A model generated the notes under the pieces. That model was not told the DNA's origin and did not search any database. It saw only the letters and a list, made by a program, of their open reading frames with translations. Below are positions 13,061 to 25,061 of a stretch of 25,061 nt of DNA, in pieces; the first letter of the stretch is position 1, and each line of letters starts with the position of its first letter. This DNA is from Promethearchaeota archaeon (GTDB lineage Archaea; Asgardarchaeota; Lokiarchaeia; Sigyniarchaeales; SOKP01): NCBI GenBank assembly GCA_016930515.1, contig JAFGGO010000090.1:1-25061 (forward strand). The letters are read 5' to 3'. The translations under genes and the position numbers were made by a program.

Positions 13061-13120
13061 AAAAAAACAAAAAACATTTTTTTTTATCAAACAAAAATTA
13101 AAAAAATTAGGTGATAATAC

Positions 13121-14527
13121 ATTCGATTCAATGTCGCAACTAACTGGGATTTAAAATTGATTGACGAATTAGCGAAATATCCCGTTTCTGATTTATATGG
13201 TGCATCAAACCATTCTATTGTTGGTGGTGGTCGACCTTCCTTTTTACTTCCAGATGTTAATGATGAATACATAGCAGAATATATTAAAAAAGTGCATGAG
13301 AAAAAAATGGAATTTTCTTTTCTACTAAATGCTCCCTGCATGAATAATATGGAAACAAACTCTCAGTATCATAAGGAACTTATCGATTATTTACAATGGA
13401 TTACTGATATCGGAGCGGATAATGTGATCGTTACGATCCCATTCTTGATACAAATCATCAAAGAACAATTTCCCAACTTGAAAGTTCGTGTTTCAACAAT
13501 TTCACATATAAATAGCGTAAACCGTGCAAAATTTTACGAAATGCTAGGGGCTGATGAAATAACACCTGATATCATGATAAATCGAGATTTTAAAACATTA
13601 AACAAGATAAAGAAAGCTGTAAAATGTAAGATCGTTTTACTTCTGACTGATGGATGTCTTTTTCAATGTCCTTTCAGACACTATCATTATAATACTCTTG
13701 GACACGCTTCGCAAACACACCAACAATTTGAGCGTAATTATGTAGATACATGCATTATTAATTGTTCAGTGATTAAATTTTCAAATCCAGAGGAAGTTCT
13801 TAAATGTAGATGGGTGCGTCCGGAAGATTTATCTCATTACGAAGACATCGGGATTACGGATTTTAAAATCGCGGGAAGGCGAATGACTACTGATTGGATT
13901 CTTAGAGCGGTTAAAGCTTTTTCCTCTCGTAAATACGATGGAAACCTTGTGGACATTATTCAAGGCTTTTCGATGTCTCACGGTGGTTTAGAACAAAAAG
14001 ATCCTAATCTTACACTCTCTAAAACAGTTGGAAAGGAGTCCCAATCAAAATTATACATCGATAATTCAAAATTAGATGGATTTATTGAGTTTTTTAAAAA
14101 GCAAAATTGTGTTGCGATGTGTGATGAGTGTAATTATTGCAAGGAGTGGGCCAAAAAAGCCGTCATATTAAATAAAGAAGAATCGGAAAAATATGTACGA
14201 TCCCTCCAAGCTTATATAGACGATCTTAAGACAAGTAGAGAATTTGGAATTTCAAAAAAGGACTCTAAAATAGAAAAATCGAATGGATTTAAATGGTTAC
14301 CCGAAACAGAAAGATTATTTAACGAACTCATTGAATTATCTCCACAACAATTTCAATCAATCGCCAGAATGGTCATCGCCTCCCTCGCAGAGGAAAAAGC
14401 AAAAAAAAGAGCCTCGTTAGAAGTTCAAAATCAAGATATCGTTAGCGCATTTATTGAAGGTACACCAGGACCATTCCAAGCAGATATGAAGGATGGCCTT
14501 AAAAAACGCGGACTTTTAAAAGAATAA
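13121..14527 (+). CDS. U32-family Fe-S protein with a C-terminal DUF2621/PCP_red-like module; probable ATT start
   Basis: GGGRP, LNAPC, DGCLFQCP, FKIAGR and CVAMCDECNYC motifs. The frame extends upstream of TTG 13157 as (I)RFNVATNWDLKL, homologous to MRISLACNWKLDL. RBS AGGTGA at 13109-13114 and an in-frame stop at 13115. Confidence 0.82.
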   Translation: MRFNVATNWDLKLIDELAKYPVSDLYGASNHSIVGGGRPSFLLPDVNDEYIAEYIKKVHEKKMEFSFLLNAPCMNNMETNSQYHKELIDYLQWITDIGADNVIVTIPFLIQIIKEQFPNLKVRVSTISHINSVNRAKFYEMLGADEITPDIMINRDFKTLNKIKKAVKCKIVLLLTDGCLFQCPFRHYHYNTLGHASQTHQQFERNYVDTCIINCSVIKFSNPEEVLKCRWVRPEDLSHYEDIGITDFKIAGRRMTTDWILRAVKAFSSRKYDGNLVDIIQGFSMSHGGLEQKDPNLTLSKTVGKESQSKLYIDNSKLDGFIEFFKKQNCVAMCDECNYCKEWAKKAVILNKEESEKYVRSLQAYIDDLKTSREFGISKKDSKIEKSNGFKWLPETERLFNELIELSPQQFQSIARMVIASLAEEKAKKRASLEVQNQDIVSAFIEGTPGPFQADMKDGLKKRGLLKE

Positions 14528-15603: not shown

Positions 15604-15677
15604 ATAGGAGGCGAAACAAAACGAAAAAATTTAAAATAATAACCTATGGAACAATAATTGCAGTATATTATGTATTA

Positions 15678-16973
15678 TTGCATTTTATTTTTCCCAACTC
15701 GTGGGTATCTGTTACTAAAAATTCCATCGATAACTTCTTTACGAATTTTTTTGTATATTGGTGGTTAGTATTTCCGTTACTTGCCCTTCTTTTACTTTTT
15801 GGATTGAATATCTATTATGGGATACATTTTTTGGCTTCATTTGGAACTGGTTATAAACCTAAAGGTGATAATTACGAAAATATTACCATTATGATTGCTT
15901 CCAAGAACGAAAAAGCACTATTGGAAAGAACATTAAAATCCATAATGGATAACGATTACCCTAAAGAAAAGATTCAGTTAATTGTAATAACTAGCGGATC
16001 GACTGATGGATCGGCTGAATTTTGTGAAAAATTTTTCAAACAAAATAATACTATTAAAGCTGATATTATATCTGCCGATCTTCCTAAAAAAGGCAAACCA
16101 ACTGCCCTAAACTATGGATTAAAACTTGTAAAACATGATATAATACTTTTTTATGATTCTGGTTGCATTTTACAAAGAAATTCCTTGAAAAATTTAATTG
16201 CACCTTTAAAAGACCAGAAAAAAAAAGCTGTAATTGGACCCGTATTGGTTGAAAATTGGAACACTAATAAAATTACCAAGGGAATTTTTCTTGATTATGC
16301 AATCGTCTCTGGAGGTGGATTGCTTTTTGAAGTAAAGAATAGGTTAGGTTCTTCTGCATATTTATATGGACGTAATTTTGCGATTCGGACAGAATTATTG
16401 AAAAAATACGGTGGATTTAACGAAGATTCCATGACAGAAGATCTTTATCTTCATATACTGCTCAATTTAGATGGAATTAAGATTTATTATTCACCCAAAG
16501 CAAGAGTATATGAATATGTACCTCATACATCGGAAATATTGAAAAAACAAAGAACCAGATGGATTGCAGGATATACAGTCGATGCGCCCCAATTAATGGC
16601 CATGAAGAACGAAGAAAGAGATGGTAAAAAGATTATTATTGCTAGAAACATGACTATGACTTTTATAGGAAATATGGATACTTGGATGCCAATAATAATC
16701 GTTTTTACAATAATATATGCTCTCATAGGAGAATATTACTTAATGATATGGAATTTATCCCTTTTGTTCTTTCAATTCGGGTTTTTATTCAACGCTATTA
16801 GGAAATACGCTGATGGGCATTATAGTTTATTATTTTACTTTCTTGTTAGCGGTTATATCCACCTATACATGTTCTTACGTCAATTTTCCCTTCCTAAAGA
16901 ATTGAGTTGGGAAAAAACACCGATGATACTAGAAAGACAAGAAGAAGAAGTAAAGGCTTTAACTATTAAATAA
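15678..16973 (+). CDS. Membrane glycosyltransferase family 2 (cellulose synthase/IcaA-like)
   Basis: ASKNE, GSTD, GKPTALN, TED and QRTRW motifs, with N- and C-terminal TM helices ending in WEKT. Confidence 0.85.
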   Translation: MHFIFPNSWVSVTKNSIDNFFTNFFVYWWLVFPLLALLLLFGLNIYYGIHFLASFGTGYKPKGDNYENITIMIASKNEKALLERTLKSIMDNDYPKEKIQLIVITSGSTDGSAEFCEKFFKQNNTIKADIISADLPKKGKPTALNYGLKLVKHDIILFYDSGCILQRNSLKNLIAPLKDQKKKAVIGPVLVENWNTNKITKGIFLDYAIVSGGGLLFEVKNRLGSSAYLYGRNFAIRTELLKKYGGFNEDSMTEDLYLHILLNLDGIKIYYSPKARVYEYVPHTSEILKKQRTRWIAGYTVDAPQLMAMKNEERDGKKIIIARNMTMTFIGNMDTWMPIIIVFTIIYALIGEYYLMIWNLSLLFFQFGFLFNAIRKYADGHYSLLFYFLVSGYIHLYMFLRQFSLPKELSWEKTPMILERQEEEVKALTIK

Positions 16974-20022: not shown

Positions 20023-21459
20023 ATGAAAATTGCGCTAATTTCTCCCGTTCCAATGGATTTAAAAAAGTTAGATCCTCGACCGATGTTTTCGAGTTTTGCA
20101 GAACCGTTAGGATTATTATATGTTGCCGAAATGCTGATACAAAATGGGCATGAGGTGTCAATATTAGACCACGGAGCTACTAATTTTACTTTTTCACAGG
20201 TTTTGGATTGGATAAAAAAACAAGACCCTGATCTGCTTGGTATTTCAGTACTCATTCGGTCCTTTCTCTCTGGAATTCAAGTTGCAAATTTGGCTAAAGA
20301 TTGGAACCCTAATCTTATCGTCGTTTTGGGAAATTATCAAACTGTATGTGCTGAAAGGATAATGAATAAATATTCTTCCGTGGATTTTTGTATTCAAGGA
20401 GAGGGGGAGTATACATTGCTTGAATTGATAAGTTATCTCGAGACCAATAACCCTAATTACGAGGAAATAAAAGGAATTTATTATAAAAAAAACGGAATTA
20501 TTAAGTTTACAGATTCAAGAGAATTGGAAAAGGATTTAAACAAATTCCCATTACCGAATAGGAAATTATTAAACGGAAATTATAAAATGGCGATTGGTGG
20601 ATTAGAGATCGCAAATAAAAAATCTGGAACGATCATCATGAGCCGTGGATGTCCCTTTCAATGTCGATTTTGTTCAGTAAATCAAAGAGGGTGGAGGCAC
20701 CGCTCTATTGAAAATGTAATGGAAGAGCTTCGAGTATTAGACGCTGAAGGTTATCGAGAAATAATGGTCATGGACGACAATTTTACGTTAAATCCAAAAT
20801 GGGTACAAAAGATTTGTAGGAATATAATCAAAGAAGATCTAAATTTAGTGTTTCATTGCGAAGGGAGGGTGGAAGGTACGGATGAAATGTACAAGCACAT
20901 GAAACAAGCGAATTTTAAATCGATCTTCTTTGGCATGGAAAGCGCGGACCAGCGCATTCTCGATTATTATAACAAAAATATAACTCCTTCTAAATGCAAG
21001 TTAGCGCTAAAAAAAGCGAGAAAGGCAGGTATCGAAGTTCTTATGGCATCTTTTATCATGGGATCGCCCGAGGAAACTTTAAGCGACATCAAAACAACAA
21101 TGGATTTTGCGTTAAAAATCGACATCGATTACGCAATGTTTCACATATTTGAAGTGTTCCCAGGAATTAAAATATGGGACGAATTAGTAGCTCAAAACAA
21201 GTTAGACGAAAACAAATATTGGGAGACGGGCGTGAGGGTTCCCGAACTACCATTCTATAAAATAAAAATAGAAGTACTTACGGAAGTCATGAGGAGAGCC
21301 TATAAAAAGTTTTATTCCCTAGCACGACCGAAATTTCTTTTCAAGGAATTCTTGAGATCCATTAGAAGCTATTACCGAATGGAAAAAATTGGAAACTACG
21401 CAAGAGATTATCGATCAATGCTGAAAATGATCGAATCACTGAGCGAAAAAAGGTTTTAA
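20023..21459 (+). CDS. B12-binding radical SAM protein (class B methylase-like)
   Basis: PLGLLYVA, QGEGE, SRGCPFQCRFC, DDNFT and FGMES motifs. Confidence 0.88.
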   Translation: MKIALISPVPMDLKKLDPRPMFSSFAEPLGLLYVAEMLIQNGHEVSILDHGATNFTFSQVLDWIKKQDPDLLGISVLIRSFLSGIQVANLAKDWNPNLIVVLGNYQTVCAERIMNKYSSVDFCIQGEGEYTLLELISYLETNNPNYEEIKGIYYKKNGIIKFTDSRELEKDLNKFPLPNRKLLNGNYKMAIGGLEIANKKSGTIIMSRGCPFQCRFCSVNQRGWRHRSIENVMEELRVLDAEGYREIMVMDDNFTLNPKWVQKICRNIIKEDLNLVFHCEGRVEGTDEMYKHMKQANFKSIFFGMESADQRILDYYNKNITPSKCKLALKKARKAGIEVLMASFIMGSPEETLSDIKTTMDFALKIDIDYAMFHIFEVFPGIKIWDELVAQNKLDENKYWETGVRVPELPFYKIKIEVLTEVMRRAYKKFYSLARPKFLFKEFLRSIRSYYRMEKIGNYARDYRSMLKMIESLSEKRF

Positions 21460-21977
21460 AAATTTAGGGTTGAAAATAACATTGGATCAAATAGAAATGG
21501 TAAAATAAAAGCTATCAATCCTAAATCAAGCAAGTTATAAATTATAGCTAATATCAAGACGATGCTTCCAATTCTTTCAAAACGATTAGATCTATCTATA
21601 TAGTTTCCTCTAAATTTGGCCATTATATCAAATCATAAACCTACTATATGGAGTATGATAATTATAATAACAACAAATATGTTGATTGAATAATATTGAA
21701 AAATAGTAAGGAATCCATATTGATACGTTCGTGGATTATAGGTCATAGCTATCCCCCTATAATATTTGCAATCATATTTATTACCATTGATATCAACGCA
21801 TAATAAAAACATTATCTCGAATTTATATCAACATCTTTGATTGTTAATAAAATACTGTGATTAACTATTTTAAAATTGGTATCAAGCGTTTCTGTTTGAT
21901 TGAATGAAGTTTCACTTTCGGGACAAATTTTTTGGGACGATTCTATAATTCTTGTTCCACAACTTGGATAATATCAT
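21456..21977 (-). pseudogene. Degraded copy of the adjacent zinc-ribbon membrane protein family
   Basis: Hand translation gives YPSCGTRIIESSQKICPESE (decayed CPxCG..FCxxCG) and IIILHIVGL*FDIMAKFRG...RFERIGSIV. These are homologous to the neighbouring genes and carry several stops and frameshifts. Confidence 0.65.
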
Positions 21978-22130
21978 ATATAATTGATTTTTCTTTTTTT
22001 TAATTTGGTGTTAGAATTTATGAATAGGAATTTTTAAATTTATTTAAAATGTAATTTTAGATATATTTAGAAGAAATATATTTTATTCTAATGAAAGAAA
22101 CAGTGATAATAAATAATATATTGAAGAATA

Positions 22131-22493
22131 TCAAATTCTCAGATAAGGTGGATCAATTACATCAATTAATCTAAAAGGGATCGCAACTAAAGCTAAAACT
22201 ATTCCTATAAAGTTAGCCACGAATCCTATATAGCTTAGAATTTTATTATTTTGACTTTTATATTTATAAATTGATGTTTTCTTGATTCGGTCGAATCCCA
22301 AAATACTAAACATTAATCCAATGCCATGTAAAATTAAAATAATAAGTATTCCAAAAAATTGAAGGTCGCGAGTTGCATAATAATAATAACTACTATCGTT
22401 AATGATATTATTACCAATAAAAAAAGCTCCAATTAAAAATACTCCACCCGCAATAATTAAAGATACAAATCCTTTCCTGAAAGAAGAGTTGAT
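22131..22493 (-). CDS. Three-TM membrane protein of the tandem family, without zinc ribbon; probable ATC start
   Basis: The frame is open for 60 codons upstream of ATG 22313 (INSSFRKGFVSLIIAGG...LHGIGL). GGTGA lies 6 nt before ATC 22493, with in-frame TGA stops just upstream. Confidence 0.6.
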   Translation of the reverse strand: MNSSFRKGFVSLIIAGGVFLIGAFFIGNNIINDSSYYYYATRDLQFFGILIILILHGIGLMFSILGFDRIKKTSIYKYKSQNNKILSYIGFVANFIGIVLALVAIPFRLIDVIDPPYLRI

Positions 22494-22535
22494 ATTTCAT
22501 CACCATGATTAACTTGGAAGTTATTATAGCTATTT

Positions 22536-23081
22536 TCAAGATAAATAATATATTGGAGTGGATAATGAATAATATATCGTTATAGGAAATACGATTATTA
22601 TTAAAGTTAAACCTATAGAATTTGCTATTATTCCAATAATGGAGAAGATACTTCCTAAGGTTTCGATTGTATTTGAAGATGTAGTTTTATTACTTCTAAT
22701 TTTTCCAACTATTCCAAGGATTAATCCAGTTGCATGAGCTGCCAGAAGAATAATTACACAAAAGATTTGAATTGTCAAGTATAGAGAACTGTAATAACTG
22801 TACAAAGAGGTTATTGGGGTTCTCATTATAAAAGTACCCATAATAAGAGCAACCGCTCCGATTATCCCTGAAGCAAGTCCAAAACCAAAAACTTTTCGAG
22901 AATCTGAATCAATTTTTTCTAATTTTTTAGGAACTCTATAGGATGGTTTATAGGCTTGATCGGTGTCTGAAATTGGTCTCTTTTCTTTTATTTTTTTCAA
23001 TCGATCTAACGACATCCCACAATCTTGGCAAAAATTTTGAGAATCGTAAACAATTTTACTACCACAGTTTGGACAGAAAAT
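22536..23081 (-). CDS. Zinc-ribbon + three-TM membrane protein; probable ATT start
   Basis: In-frame extension (I)FCPNCGSKIVYDSQNFCQDCG precedes the called ATG 23015. GGGTGA RBS. Confidence 0.75.
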   Translation of the reverse strand: MFCPNCGSKIVYDSQNFCQDCGMSLDRLKKIKEKRPISDTDQAYKPSYRVPKKLEKIDSDSRKVFGFGLASGIIGAVALIMGTFIMRTPITSLYSYYSSLYLTIQIFCVIILLAAHATGLILGIVGKIRSNKTTSSNTIETLGSIFSIIGIIANSIGLTLIIIVFPITIYYSLSTPIYYLS

Positions 23082-23130
23082 TTCTTATTCACCCGAATGT
23101 TTTTTTGGTTACGAAATAAAAGAAAATATA

Positions 23131-23139
23131 ATATTTAAA
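23131..23139 (-). promoter_or_regulatory. TATA box TTTAAATAT (same motif at 23895-23903 and 25018-25026)
   Basis: Identical 9-mer located 50, 51 and 47 nt upstream of the three zinc-ribbon gene starts. Confidence 0.55.
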
Positions 23140-23328
23140 TCCCATAACAAAGATGGTAATAATCGAAGTTTTTAATTAAAATTATTTGAATTAAGAGAGG
23201 ATTGTTTAATATAGCTTAAATTAATCTATTTGAGTTTATCGCTGAAAAGGATTGAATGGTTGATGGAATAAAAGAATTAGCAAATTAAATTAAATTTTTG
23301 ATTTTATCGTTAGATTGGATAAAAGATC

Positions 23329-23844
23329 TTATAGAATTAATATAAATATGGGGAATATGATAATGGCGAGTATTAAACCTATGGAATTTGCTATTATGCC
23401 TAATAAGGAAAAGATCGCTCCCCAATGCTTGAAAGAATTATCGTGTATTATATTCTTGCTTTTAACTTTTCCAATTATTCCCAAAGCTAATCCCGCGGAG
23501 TGAAGCGCTAAAAGCACGATTAGGGATATTATTTGAGTCGTTATTAAAATCGAACCGATATAACTCTCTAGCATGTCAATAGATGGCATCAATAACAAGG
23601 AACCTTCACTAAATCCTGTTGTAGCTATAATTCCAGAAATAAGACCCAAAACAAAAACTTTCCTTGAATCTTTATCTACCACTTCTTTAACAGGAGCAAT
23701 AATAGGTCTATTATAGGTAGGAACTAAATTTGCCTTTGGTATATTTTGTTTTTTTTTCTTCAATTCTTCTAATGAAATACCACATTCTTGGCAAAAATTT
23801 TGCAATTCATCAACAATTTTATTTCCACAATTTGGGCAAAAAAT
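23329..23844 (-). CDS. Zinc-ribbon + three-TM membrane protein; probable ATT start
   Basis: In-frame extension (I)FCPNCGNKIVDE completes the ribbon with QNFCQECG. Close paralog of 22536-23081 (DSRKVF, GIIANSIGL). Confidence 0.75.
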   Translation of the reverse strand: MFCPNCGNKIVDELQNFCQECGISLEELKKKKQNIPKANLVPTYNRPIIAPVKEVVDKDSRKVFVLGLISGIIATTGFSEGSLLLMPSIDMLESYIGSILITTQIISLIVLLALHSAGLALGIIGKVKSKNIIHDNSFKHWGAIFSLLGIIANSIGLILAIIIFPIFILIL

Positions 23845-23941
23845 GATTTTTCACATTAAATTCGATATTTGGATATTAGAAAAAAAGGGAATAAATATTT
23901 AAATTTTATAATAAATTTAGATTCAGAATTTTACAAACTTT

Positions 23942-24340
23942 TCAAACTAAAAGGTTATAGAAAGGTGATAATAATATGAATATAAGTATTGTTAAAGCAA
24001 TTGAATTCAATATTGTTCCAACGATGGATGTGACTTTTCCTGTTGTTTTGATGGCTATGGGTTTTTTTATTAAATTACTATGACCAATCCCCGAAATACC
24101 TATAATCATTCCCGCAATATTTAAGTTTAATACGATTAACATCATAATTATTATATCGAAAACAAAGGAATAATTTGTACTAACATATCCTATTAAAGAT
24201 GGTCCATATAAAACGGCAAGTCGAGTCCCAAGAATAAACGATATAACTAATAATGTAGATGATGTTATTCCCTTTGATAATCCTTTTACAGAATTCTCGT
24301 CTAGTTTATTATATTGGTATTGCATTTTTTCCATGGTCAT
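23942..24340 (-). CDS. Three-TM membrane protein of the tandem family, without zinc ribbon
   Basis: LNIAGMIIGISG..SN and ILNSIAL family motifs. ATG 24340 after AGGTA is preferred to TTG 24376. Confidence 0.65.
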   Translation of the reverse strand: MTMEKMQYQYNKLDENSVKGLSKGITSSTLLVISFILGTRLAVLYGPSLIGYVSTNYSFVFDIIIMMLIVLNLNIAGMIIGISGIGHSNLIKKPIAIKTTGKVTSIVGTILNSIALTILIFILLSPFYNLLV

Positions 24341-24377
24341 GTTAATTACCTTTAAATTAATTTTACAATTTATCAAT

Positions 24378-24971
24378 TTATACTATTAAGTATAATTCCC
24401 AAGAGAAAGCTAAAGGAAAAATTAAAAGCGCAAAAGTTGCTACAGCTATCCCGATAGAATTTAAAACTTCAGCTAGGTTCGAAAAGACGAGCCCGGTAAT
24501 TTTCGCTGAATCTGAAGTTTTAGCTTTGTTGCTTTGACCTTTCCCAGTTATTGCGAGTATGATTCCAGCCACATGGATATTAATAGTTATTATTAAAACG
24601 GTCATGTTTTCAATCGGAGAAAAATAATAACGATAAGGGTAATGAAATTGTAAGATTGGAGTCACAAGTATAAACGCTAAAATGGCGAAAAAAAACGATG
24701 TAACACCAAAAGTGAAAGTTTTTATCGTATATTTATCAAATTCGAATTTCTTCGTTTGTTTAGTAATCACTAACGGTTCTATTGGTTTTGATGGTGGTTC
24801 TGGTTTCTTGTAAGTGGGAATCTTTTCTGTTTTTTGAAGAACAACTTGGCCACTACTTGAAATTATAGTATTATCAACACTTGAATTTTTTTTTTCTAAA
24901 GATGCACCACATTTATGACAAAATTTTTGAGAAGGACTTTTTAATTCAGCATTGCATTTTGGACAATAAAT
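24378..24971 (-). CDS. Zinc-ribbon + three-TM membrane protein; probable ATT start
   Basis: 67-codon in-frame extension (I)YCPKCNAELKSPSQKFCHKCG...PEPPSKP before GTG 24770. IHVAGIILA and LNSIG motifs. Confidence 0.75.
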   Translation of the reverse strand: MYCPKCNAELKSPSQKFCHKCGASLEKKNSSVDNTIISSSGQVVLQKTEKIPTYKKPEPPSKPIEPLVITKQTKKFEFDKYTIKTFTFGVTSFFFAILAFILVTPILQFHYPYRYYFSPIENMTVLIITINIHVAGIILAITGKGQSNKAKTSDSAKITGLVFSNLAEVLNSIGIAVATFALLIFPLAFSWELYLIV

Positions 24972-25061
24972 GGTATTTCACTTCTTTTTTTTGGTCATAT
25001 TTTATGATGATTATTTCATATTTAAAACTTTAGGAACGAGTCATAAAATAAATATAAATTA

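Follow-up and report, generated by a model that had tools for sequence, protein, structure and literature searches.

Initiation at AUU behind a Shine–Dalgarno (SD) sequence is known in bacteria from Escherichia coli infC, which encodes IF3 and is autoregulated via its AUU codon, and from pcnB. NCBI translation table 11 includes ATT, ATC, ATA and CTG among the alternative initiators; ACG is not in its list. The near-cognate starts of eukaryotes comprise CUG, ACG, AUU and others, CUG being the best of them. The infC gene is discussed in PMC4705826. Eukaryotic eIF1 regulates its own synthesis by way of an unfavourable start context (Ivanov et al. 2010, cited in PMC6237735), and N-terminomics of Deinococcus deserti revealed an unusual use of non-canonical initiation codons (PMC2830850). 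Among Asgard archaea, a ‘rare ATT start codon’ has been proposed for the AtubA tubulin of a metagenome-assembled genome of the Kariarchaeaceae (PMC13394414). Apart from this anecdote, the literature that we searched contained no systematic account of near-cognate starts in Asgard archaea, nor any ACG or aIF1 cases. Here we describe probable starts of this kind in an uncultured Promethearchaeota (Loki-type Asgard) archaeon. The window analysed is an entire contig of 25,061 nt (C142; JAFGGO010000090.1), taken from a metagenome bin of 4.0 Mb with 190 contigs, 35% G+C and 94% completeness. Its minus strand carries, at 21,456–24,971, six paralogues of a small membrane protein in tandem, five intact and one decayed, which are named below by the position of their start. 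An N-terminal CPxC...CxxC zinc ribbon is found in three of them (24971, 23844 and 23081); two others, 24340 (with an ATG start) and 22493, have no ribbon. On the sequence evidence presented below, it is likely that the three ribbon genes start at AUU and that 22493 probably starts at AUC, as one instance of a genome-wide habit of SD-led initiation at AUU, AUC and ACG.

When the minus strand is read directly, the combinations of ribosome-binding site (RBS) and start codon given in the preliminary description are all in place, with ATT at 23081, 23844 and 24971 and ATC at 22493 (table 1). An in-frame stop lies two to three codons upstream of each, TAA before 23081 and TGA before the other three. 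In the three cases with a gap of 6 nt this stop is trivial, because the TGA within the GTGA of the RBS falls in frame. One or two sense codons separate the stop from the candidate codon, and neither ATG, GTG nor TTG occurs among them in any of the four genes. The ATT of 23844 is immediately preceded by an ATC codon, which leaves a gap of 3 nt to the SD motif. In this genome, 2,820 long ATG-led frames yield the SD consensus GGAGGTGA, whose GTGA ends 5–7 nt before the start; at the four sites GTGA ends 6–7 nt upstream, so that their geometry is canonical. The motif TTTAAATAT is indeed shared upstream of the three ATT codons, at the distances listed in table 1, and the 8-mer TTTAAATA has a genome-wide frequency of 0.02 occurrences per 120 nt. 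TTTAAATAT fits the archaeal TATA consensus; if it serves as a TATA-like box, its position would give a leader of some 25 nt with the RBS inside it. The fifth case of the preliminary description, the U32-peptidase-like gene with ATT at 13121, is also as described there.

Each of the three ATT codons is followed by [FY]-C-P-x-C ... C-x-x-C and occupies the Met position of a zinc ribbon recognized by Pfam, in which two CxxC pairs lie about 12 residues apart. The Pfam ribbon models match the three ATT-started proteins from residue 1–3, above the curated cut-offs (Zn_ribbon_3, PF13248, 28.0 and 29.6 bits, cut-off 27; Zn_Ribbon_1, PF13240, 28.0 bits, cut-off 25). Pfam names the ribbon only, and no Pfam family matches the membrane domain of the array proteins. 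Late starts had been expected to hide N-terminal domains in all four genes. This applies to the three ribbons, and not to 22493, in which there is no ribbon and a late start would hide two membrane helices instead. At the codon that precedes [FY]CPxC, the homologues found in 12 related genomes (about 30 in number) have ATG in 27 cases, GTG in two and ATT in one, the last in a genome of the same genus.

The ribbon segment is, judged by its substitution pattern, under purifying selection. For codons 2–30 of 23081 and 23844, whose proteins are 49–50% identical, the ratio of non-synonymous to synonymous divergence (dN/dS) is 0.14, with a proportion of synonymous differences (pS) of 0.57. These codons lie largely upstream of the canonical starts in 23081 and are reported to do so wholly in 23844. 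Against the distant 24971 copy, both genes give a dN/dS of 0.55–0.64 at saturated pS. All 12 ribbon cysteines are kept across the three copies, with synonymous TGT/TGC changes at cysteine codons, and the internal ATG of 23081 is an ATT (Ile) codon in 23844. The 24971 copy is 31–33% identical to the other two, as distant as homologues from other genera, and it still has ATT; the codon has therefore been retained for long or has arisen more than once. Within the same genus, another ribbon paralogue array (genome G005, contig C17, L043, minus strand) includes one copy with ATT and a near-identical neighbour with ATG at the same codon, both behind the same AGATGAAAATTAC leader.

The genome was then considered as a whole. 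Every codon that follows a 5-mer of the SD consensus at the proper distance was taken, and we counted how many open a frame of 100 codons or more that lacks a canonical start both upstream and in its first 10 codons. Three shifted SD spacings served as controls, and proper and shifted spacings were compared by Fisher tests. This genome-wide count of codons behind GGTGA-like motifs, which the preliminary description had proposed together with an examination of homology-defined N-termini, gave a positive result. The canonical codons reach 8.45% (ATG), 3.53% (GTG) and 1.74% (TTG) at proper spacing. ATT follows with 26/2613 (1.00%, p = 2e-4 versus shifted), ATC with 14/1365 (1.03%, p = 3e-3) and ACG, the most enriched near-cognate, with 14/795 (1.76%, p = 1e-4). 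These three codons exceed the shifted-spacing controls 3–6 fold (pooled p = 3e-9). In the controls, near-cognates lie at 0.15–0.5%, the Fisher comparison for ATT, ATC and ACG being 0.31–0.37%. No significant excess was seen in the same SD-anchored count for ATA (0.48%), CTG (0.16%), AAG (0.19%) or AGG (0.12%), and all other codons together stand at 0.25%. Random start loss or sequencing error would yield ATA, CTG, AAG and AGG equally, and both are disfavoured by this restriction to ATT, ATC and ACG. ATA was likewise considered as a start in this genome and rejected for lack of an excess in these counts, though it is found at homologous start sites in relatives.

The excess over background amounts to about 37 genes under these conditions; it rises to about 59 when the filter on the next canonical codon is dropped, and is about 44 when a 4-mer match to the SD is accepted. 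This suggests that near-cognate starts are used in roughly 35–60 genes, or some 1–1.5% of genes at minimum. The five sites of the preliminary description and the ACG of a glycosyltransferase gene at 15621 are all within the genome-wide candidate list. The proposed routine use of AUU and AUC is supported by the enrichment of ATT and ATC, with the corrections that ACG also belongs to the set and that ATA does not stand out here. Its extension to the lineage has to be narrowed. In a complete genome of a sister family (G032, 4.36 Mb, of which 1.2 Mb was sampled), 46 ATG and five ATT, ATC or ACG were counted, the latter not significant against the controls; the ratio of near-cognates to ATG is 54:121 here versus 5:46 there (p = 0.002). 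From these counts, near-cognate use is dense in the present genome and in its family; beyond the family it occurs, but sparsely. One of the five near-cognates of G032 is a plausible ATC start behind AAGGTG: at about 1,566,379 (+) of contig C1 (block 1,500,001–1,900,000; L199–L218), it opens a frame of 1192 codons with an RNA polymerase A'-like N-terminus.

Ten candidates were scanned against Pfam, and their orthologues were compared in 24 relatives. Several have N-termini that are fixed by homology upstream of any canonical start. The XPG_N match of the flap endonuclease FEN1 (ATC) starts at residue 6, which corresponds to position 7 of the model, and the next canonical codon is codon 55. The corresponding codon is ATG, TTG or GTG in 21 of the 21 relatives examined and ATC only here, which points to a recent replacement in an essential gene. 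The domain of a GPN-loop ATPase (ATT) begins at residue 6, and its P-loop precedes the next canonical codon, codon 25; this start is ATT in 11 genomes of the taxonomic family and ATG in the rest. A RibL-like cytidylyltransferase (ATT) matches Pfam from residue 7, with the region of its HxGH motif before the first canonical codon, and in a ferredoxin-nitroreductase (ATT) the match to the Fer4 domain begins at residue 4. Two ACG genes belong to the same series. A cyclase matches Pfam from residue 4, upstream of its first canonical codon, and its start is ACG here, ATA in the closest relative and ATG or TTG elsewhere. The next canonical codon of an SIS protein is codon 75, inside the domain (SIS_2); the start is ATG in seven relatives and ACG only here.

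The two candidates on the plus strand of the window behave similarly. The U32-peptidase-like gene has ATT in four genomes (the present one, G006, G010 and G013) and ATG in G005, G007 and G026. The glycosyltransferase gene at 15621, which has no canonical start for 19 codons, has ACG here; at this position or beside it, G005 has ATT, G010 has ATC and the other genomes have ATG. The same start site can thus carry ATG, ATT, ATC, ATA or ACG across sister genomes. An SD match of at least 4 nt accompanies 34/36 near-cognate starts versus 32/57 ATG orthologues, a comparison in which the rows of the present genome were themselves selected for an SD and the relatives are not independent.

The initiation factor aIF1 is itself among these genes. 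It has no ATG, GTG or TTG before codon 58 of 111, which lies in the middle of the SUI1 domain. ATT, replaced by ATC or ATA in two cases, is kept at the start position in 14 genomes, most of which have a AAAGGTTGTGA-like SD; in more distant families the start is TTG or ATG. Like that of the GPN ATPase, the ATT of aIF1 is conserved throughout the taxonomic family. Work on Sulfolobus, cited in PMC6237735, reports that aIF1 discriminates against non-canonical start codons. A weak and conserved start in the gene of a factor with such a proofreading role provides a parallel to infC/IF3 and to eIF1. By analogy, it suggests a feedback of the IF3/eIF1 type on start-codon stringency, acting through the aIF1 start.

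A number of observations weigh against initiation at the near-cognate codons, and they bear unequally on the four genes of the array. The weaker case is 22493. A protein-database search revealed no relative of its protein in the range of 66–210 amino acids outside the array, BLASTP against the ATG-started ribbon-less 24340 paralogue gave nothing significant, and an ATG-GTG-ATG run lies 13 nt upstream of the ATC in another frame. The true start of this gene could thus be that run (22506–22498), which is in the +1 frame inside an open reading frame (ORF) of 42 codons, put out of frame by a one-base indel, either real or a low-depth assembly error; or the gene could be a dead fragment. The site is almost without cover by independent contigs, and no full-length public call exists for 22493, only a truncated one of 60 amino acids. 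Against these alternatives, which we regard as unlikely, GGTGA stands exactly 6 nt before the ATC, and 120 codons without a stop encode the full set of membrane helices, the first two of which would be removed by the canonical start at codon 61. In a five-way alignment the resemblance to the paralogues sets in immediately downstream of the ATC, and tblastn-type matches also connect the gene with them. ATC is enriched genome-wide and is used by FEN1. The ATC of 22493 is therefore probably the start, on evidence that is thinner than that for the three ATT genes.

All four genes could also be start-loss pseudogenes or have decaying N-termini. ATG would have been lost and the ribbon would be untranslated, the gene being dead or producing the membrane domain only, from a downstream start. 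The family does decay, as the sixth copy of the array is a genuine pseudogene, and homologues elsewhere have nearly all kept ATG. Ribbon-less paralogues exist, which implies that the membrane domain can stand alone. Furthermore, an orthologue from another NCBI record (P0005, 72% identical) shares the Met that lies inside the 23081 protein, and it has been called from this Met as a protein of 157 amino acids without a ribbon. A short isoform of the 23081 protein may thus also be made from the internal Met; the record also suggests that the P0005 ribbon likewise has no canonical start in its own genome.

What makes general start loss quite improbable is the state of the segment that would be untranslated. 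The dN/dS of 0.14 was obtained at near-saturated synonymous divergence, with 12/12 cysteines kept and synonymous changes among their codons. In all three copies ATT stands precisely where homologues have their first Met, with an SD at 6–7 nt, and the first canonical codon falls between the Cys pairs in 23844 and at codon 68 in 24971. The relic at 21456–21990 provides an internal control for the appearance of a pseudogene in this array: two of its four ribbon cysteines, the frame and the openness are gone. Lost residues, frameshifts and internal stops are present there and absent from the four genes. Loss of starts also fails to account for an enrichment that is confined to ATT, ATC and ACG, or for the same pattern in the essential genes of FEN1, aIF1 and the GPN ATPase. 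We read the four genes as ordinary small membrane proteins whose N-termini are now defined, and the consequence for the genes themselves is modest.

It is very improbable that the true codons are ATG and were altered by assembly or consensus errors. The bin is a low-coverage one, with contig depths of about 6–20, and only one of the four start sites, 23844, is covered by independent contigs, where the depth is low (about 6–10x). There, an independent contig in Logan, from what is probably the source run, reproduces 23766–24370 without a difference, ATT included. Errors would neither target start codons nor favour ATT, ATC and ACG over ATA, CTG, AAG and AGG; moreover, the ATT of aIF1, of the GPN ATPase and of the U32-like gene recurs in independently assembled genomes. 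Public annotations treat the region unevenly. The claim that standard callers truncate these proteins is correct for the Prodigal-type calls in Logan, of 159 (P0001, for 23081) and 60 amino acids, and not for the NCBI record, in which two proteins start at ATT. One of them (P0002, 181 amino acids) begins with MFCPNCG at ATT 23081; the other, of 197 amino acids for ATT 24971, shows 99% identity, as would be expected if residue 1 alone differed, M in place of I.

Three further searches gave negative results. No RNA contigs match the region in two metatranscriptome runs of the same study. The 16S rRNA was not found in the 94%-complete assembly, and the anti-SD sequence is deduced from the SD consensus alone. 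Among the 27 tRNAs no initiator-like Met tRNA was recognized by ARAGORN with and without introns, by an anticodon-arm pattern or by Rfam tRNA. A special initiator tRNA with an altered anticodon is unlikely, since one tRNA cannot explain three near-cognate codons.

Read-through of an in-frame TGA from an upstream ATG, for which two of the three ribbon genes offer an ATG with only a TGA between (25000–24998 for 24971 and 23856–23854 for 23844), can be dismissed together with a changed genetic code: TGA is an ordinary stop that ends 19% of the long frames of this genome and at a 6-nt gap is merely part of the GTGA motif, 23081 has a TAA and no upstream ATG, and the homologues start at M[FY]CP without an extension.

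The anatomy of the sequence, the homology, the selection, the genome-wide enrichment and the conservation are direct observations. Initiation at AUU, AUC and ACG, the use of initiator Met-tRNA (Met-tRNAi) and the promoter function of the upstream boxes are what we infer from them, and the following mechanism is proposed. An SD of the GGUGA type, 6–7 nt upstream, would pair with the 3' end of 16S rRNA and place AUU, AUC or ACG in the P site. The codon would most likely be read by ordinary Met-tRNAi with one mismatch, at the third position of AUU and AUC and at the second of ACG, so that the proteins would begin with Met. The strong SD would compensate for the weak codon. Each ribbon gene would have its own TATA-like box about 50 nt upstream and a leader of about 25 nt carrying the SD. 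The zinc ribbon at the N-terminus of the three ribbon proteins would be cytoplasmic. The weak starts probably set a low expression, which would suit small membrane proteins and could allow control through the level of aIF1.

The coordinates of the array and of the other genes discussed are collected in table 1. The 24340 paralogue is probably co-transcribed with 24971. The 22493 gene lies 40 nt behind 23081 and has no TATA motif of its own. The plus strand of the window is occupied at 198–21459 by one long cluster, with at least five B12-binding radical SAM enzymes, one SPASM radical SAM enzyme, an ABBA aromatic prenyltransferase (Orf2 type), two U32-peptidase-like proteins, a CDP-alcohol phosphatidyltransferase and a GT2 glycosyltransferase. 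This cluster could be a locus for lipid or secondary-metabolite modification.

Table 1. Features of the window and of two genes elsewhere in the genome, with their start codons and upstream motifs. Locations refer to the window unless a contig is given.
Feature	Location	Strand	Remarks
Zinc-ribbon and membrane-domain gene, 197 codons	24378..24971	-	ATT 24971-24969; first canonical codon GTG 24770 (codon 68)
Shine–Dalgarno-like AAGTGA	24978..24983	-	6 nt before ATT 24971
TATA-box-like TTTAAATAT	25018..25026	-	46 nt before ATT 24971; putative promoter, by the archaeal TATA consensus
Ribbon-less paralogue, membrane domain alone	23942..24340	-	ordinary ATG start; directly behind the 24971 gene
Zinc-ribbon and membrane-domain gene, 171 codons	23329..23844	-	ATT 23844-23842; first canonical codon TTG 23805 (codon 14), between the two Cys pairs
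Shine–Dalgarno-like ATGTGA	23851..23856	-	6 nt before ATT 23844
TATA-box-like TTTAAATAT	23895..23903	-	50 nt before ATT 23844
Zinc-ribbon and membrane-domain gene, 181 codons	22536..23081	-	ATT 23081-23079; first canonical codon ATG 23015 (codon 23), past the ribbon
Shine–Dalgarno-like GGGTGA	23089..23094	-	7 nt before ATT 23081
TATA-box-like TTTAAATAT	23131..23139	-	49 nt before ATT 23081
Ribbon-less paralogue, 120 codons	22131..22493	-	probable start ATC 22493-22491; first canonical codon ATG 22313 (codon 61)
Shine–Dalgarno GGTGA	22500..22504	-	6 nt before ATC 22493
Decayed sixth copy (pseudogene)	21456..21990	-	ATG, then one-base frameshift; 2/4 ribbon Cys replaced; in-frame TGA within the membrane domain
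U32-peptidase-like gene	13121..14527	+	ATT 13121, 6 nt behind GGTGA (13110-13114); aligned to the ATG that starts the 11021 paralogue
Family-2 glycosyltransferase gene	15621..16973	+	probable start ACG 15621, 9 nt behind GGAGG (15607-15611)
FEN1 flap endonuclease gene	G000 contig C126 23449-24504 (L001)	-	ATC directly behind GGTGATATGA
aIF1 gene	G000 contig C31 21080-21412 (L048/L049), start 21089	+	ATT 9 nt behind GGTTGTGA, before the zinc knuckle

A wider reading is possible, and we offer it tentatively: one Loki-type Asgard family may run initiation at a deliberately relaxed stringency. The weak AUU of aIF1 would have been kept for the whole history of the family as part of the feedback suggested above, and AUU, AUC and ACG behind a strong SD would be ordinary, selectable starts with a rapid turnover, replacing ATG even in FEN1, the GPN ATPase and aIF1. 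If true, the lineage closest to eukaryotes would possess a prokaryotic equivalent of their near-cognate initiation, based on the SD, and with it an additional level at which expression could be tuned.

The practical consequences concern annotation. Callers restricted to ATG, GTG and TTG lose N-terminal domains or miss genes of Asgard archaea. In the present genome the losses would be zinc ribbons, P-loops and, for FEN1, half of the nuclease domain. Such truncated calls distort domain inventories and structure predictions in a lineage that is used to reconstruct the origin of eukaryotes. Beyond annotation, it appears that an archaeal system which relies on an SD and has initiation factors of the eukaryotic type can use AUU, AUC and ACG in an appreciable number of genes, aIF1 among them, whereby start-codon stringency and its possible autoregulation become testable in archaea.

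ATT and ATC as initiators are already known, and NCBI has already used them on this contig. What appears to be new is their density, their occurrence in core genes and in aIF1, the inclusion of ACG, the dependence on an SD in an archaeon whose factors are of the eukaryotic type, and the speed with which these codons and ATG replace one another from one sister genome to the next. Translation table 11, which the NCBI pipeline uses, already allows ATT and ATC, and the NCBI record has ATT for two ribbon proteins; the present genome goes far beyond the usual both in the frequency of such starts and in the core genes that they affect. The D. deserti study resembles ours in that several starts other than ATG, GTG and TTG were recognized at the scale of a genome, along with mis-annotated genes; that organism is a bacterium studied with peptide evidence, whereas the present one is an uncultured archaeon known here from its sequence alone. 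AtubA comes from the same superphylum and presents the same situation, a deposited protein that is too short and an ATT upstream, at a plausible RBS distance, from which the N-terminus then aligns; it is a single gene, and the ATT was called rare there.

Mechanistic parallels are infC and pcnB of E. coli, where, as proposed here, a near-cognate codon behind an SD is read by the initiator tRNA and where the gene of the proofreading factor itself carries such a codon, IF3 there and aIF1 here. The differences lie in the apparatus, which is archaeal and eukaryote-like (aIF1/aIF1A/aIF2) and does not involve IF3, in the number of genes, dozens as opposed to two or three, and in the inclusion of ACG. 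With eukaryotes, the present system would share homologous factors that govern stringency (eIF1/aIF1 and eIF2/aIF2), the usability of ACG and the weak start of the proofreading factor's own gene. It differs from them in that the start would be positioned by an SD and not by scanning and Kozak context, and in that CTG is without excess here.

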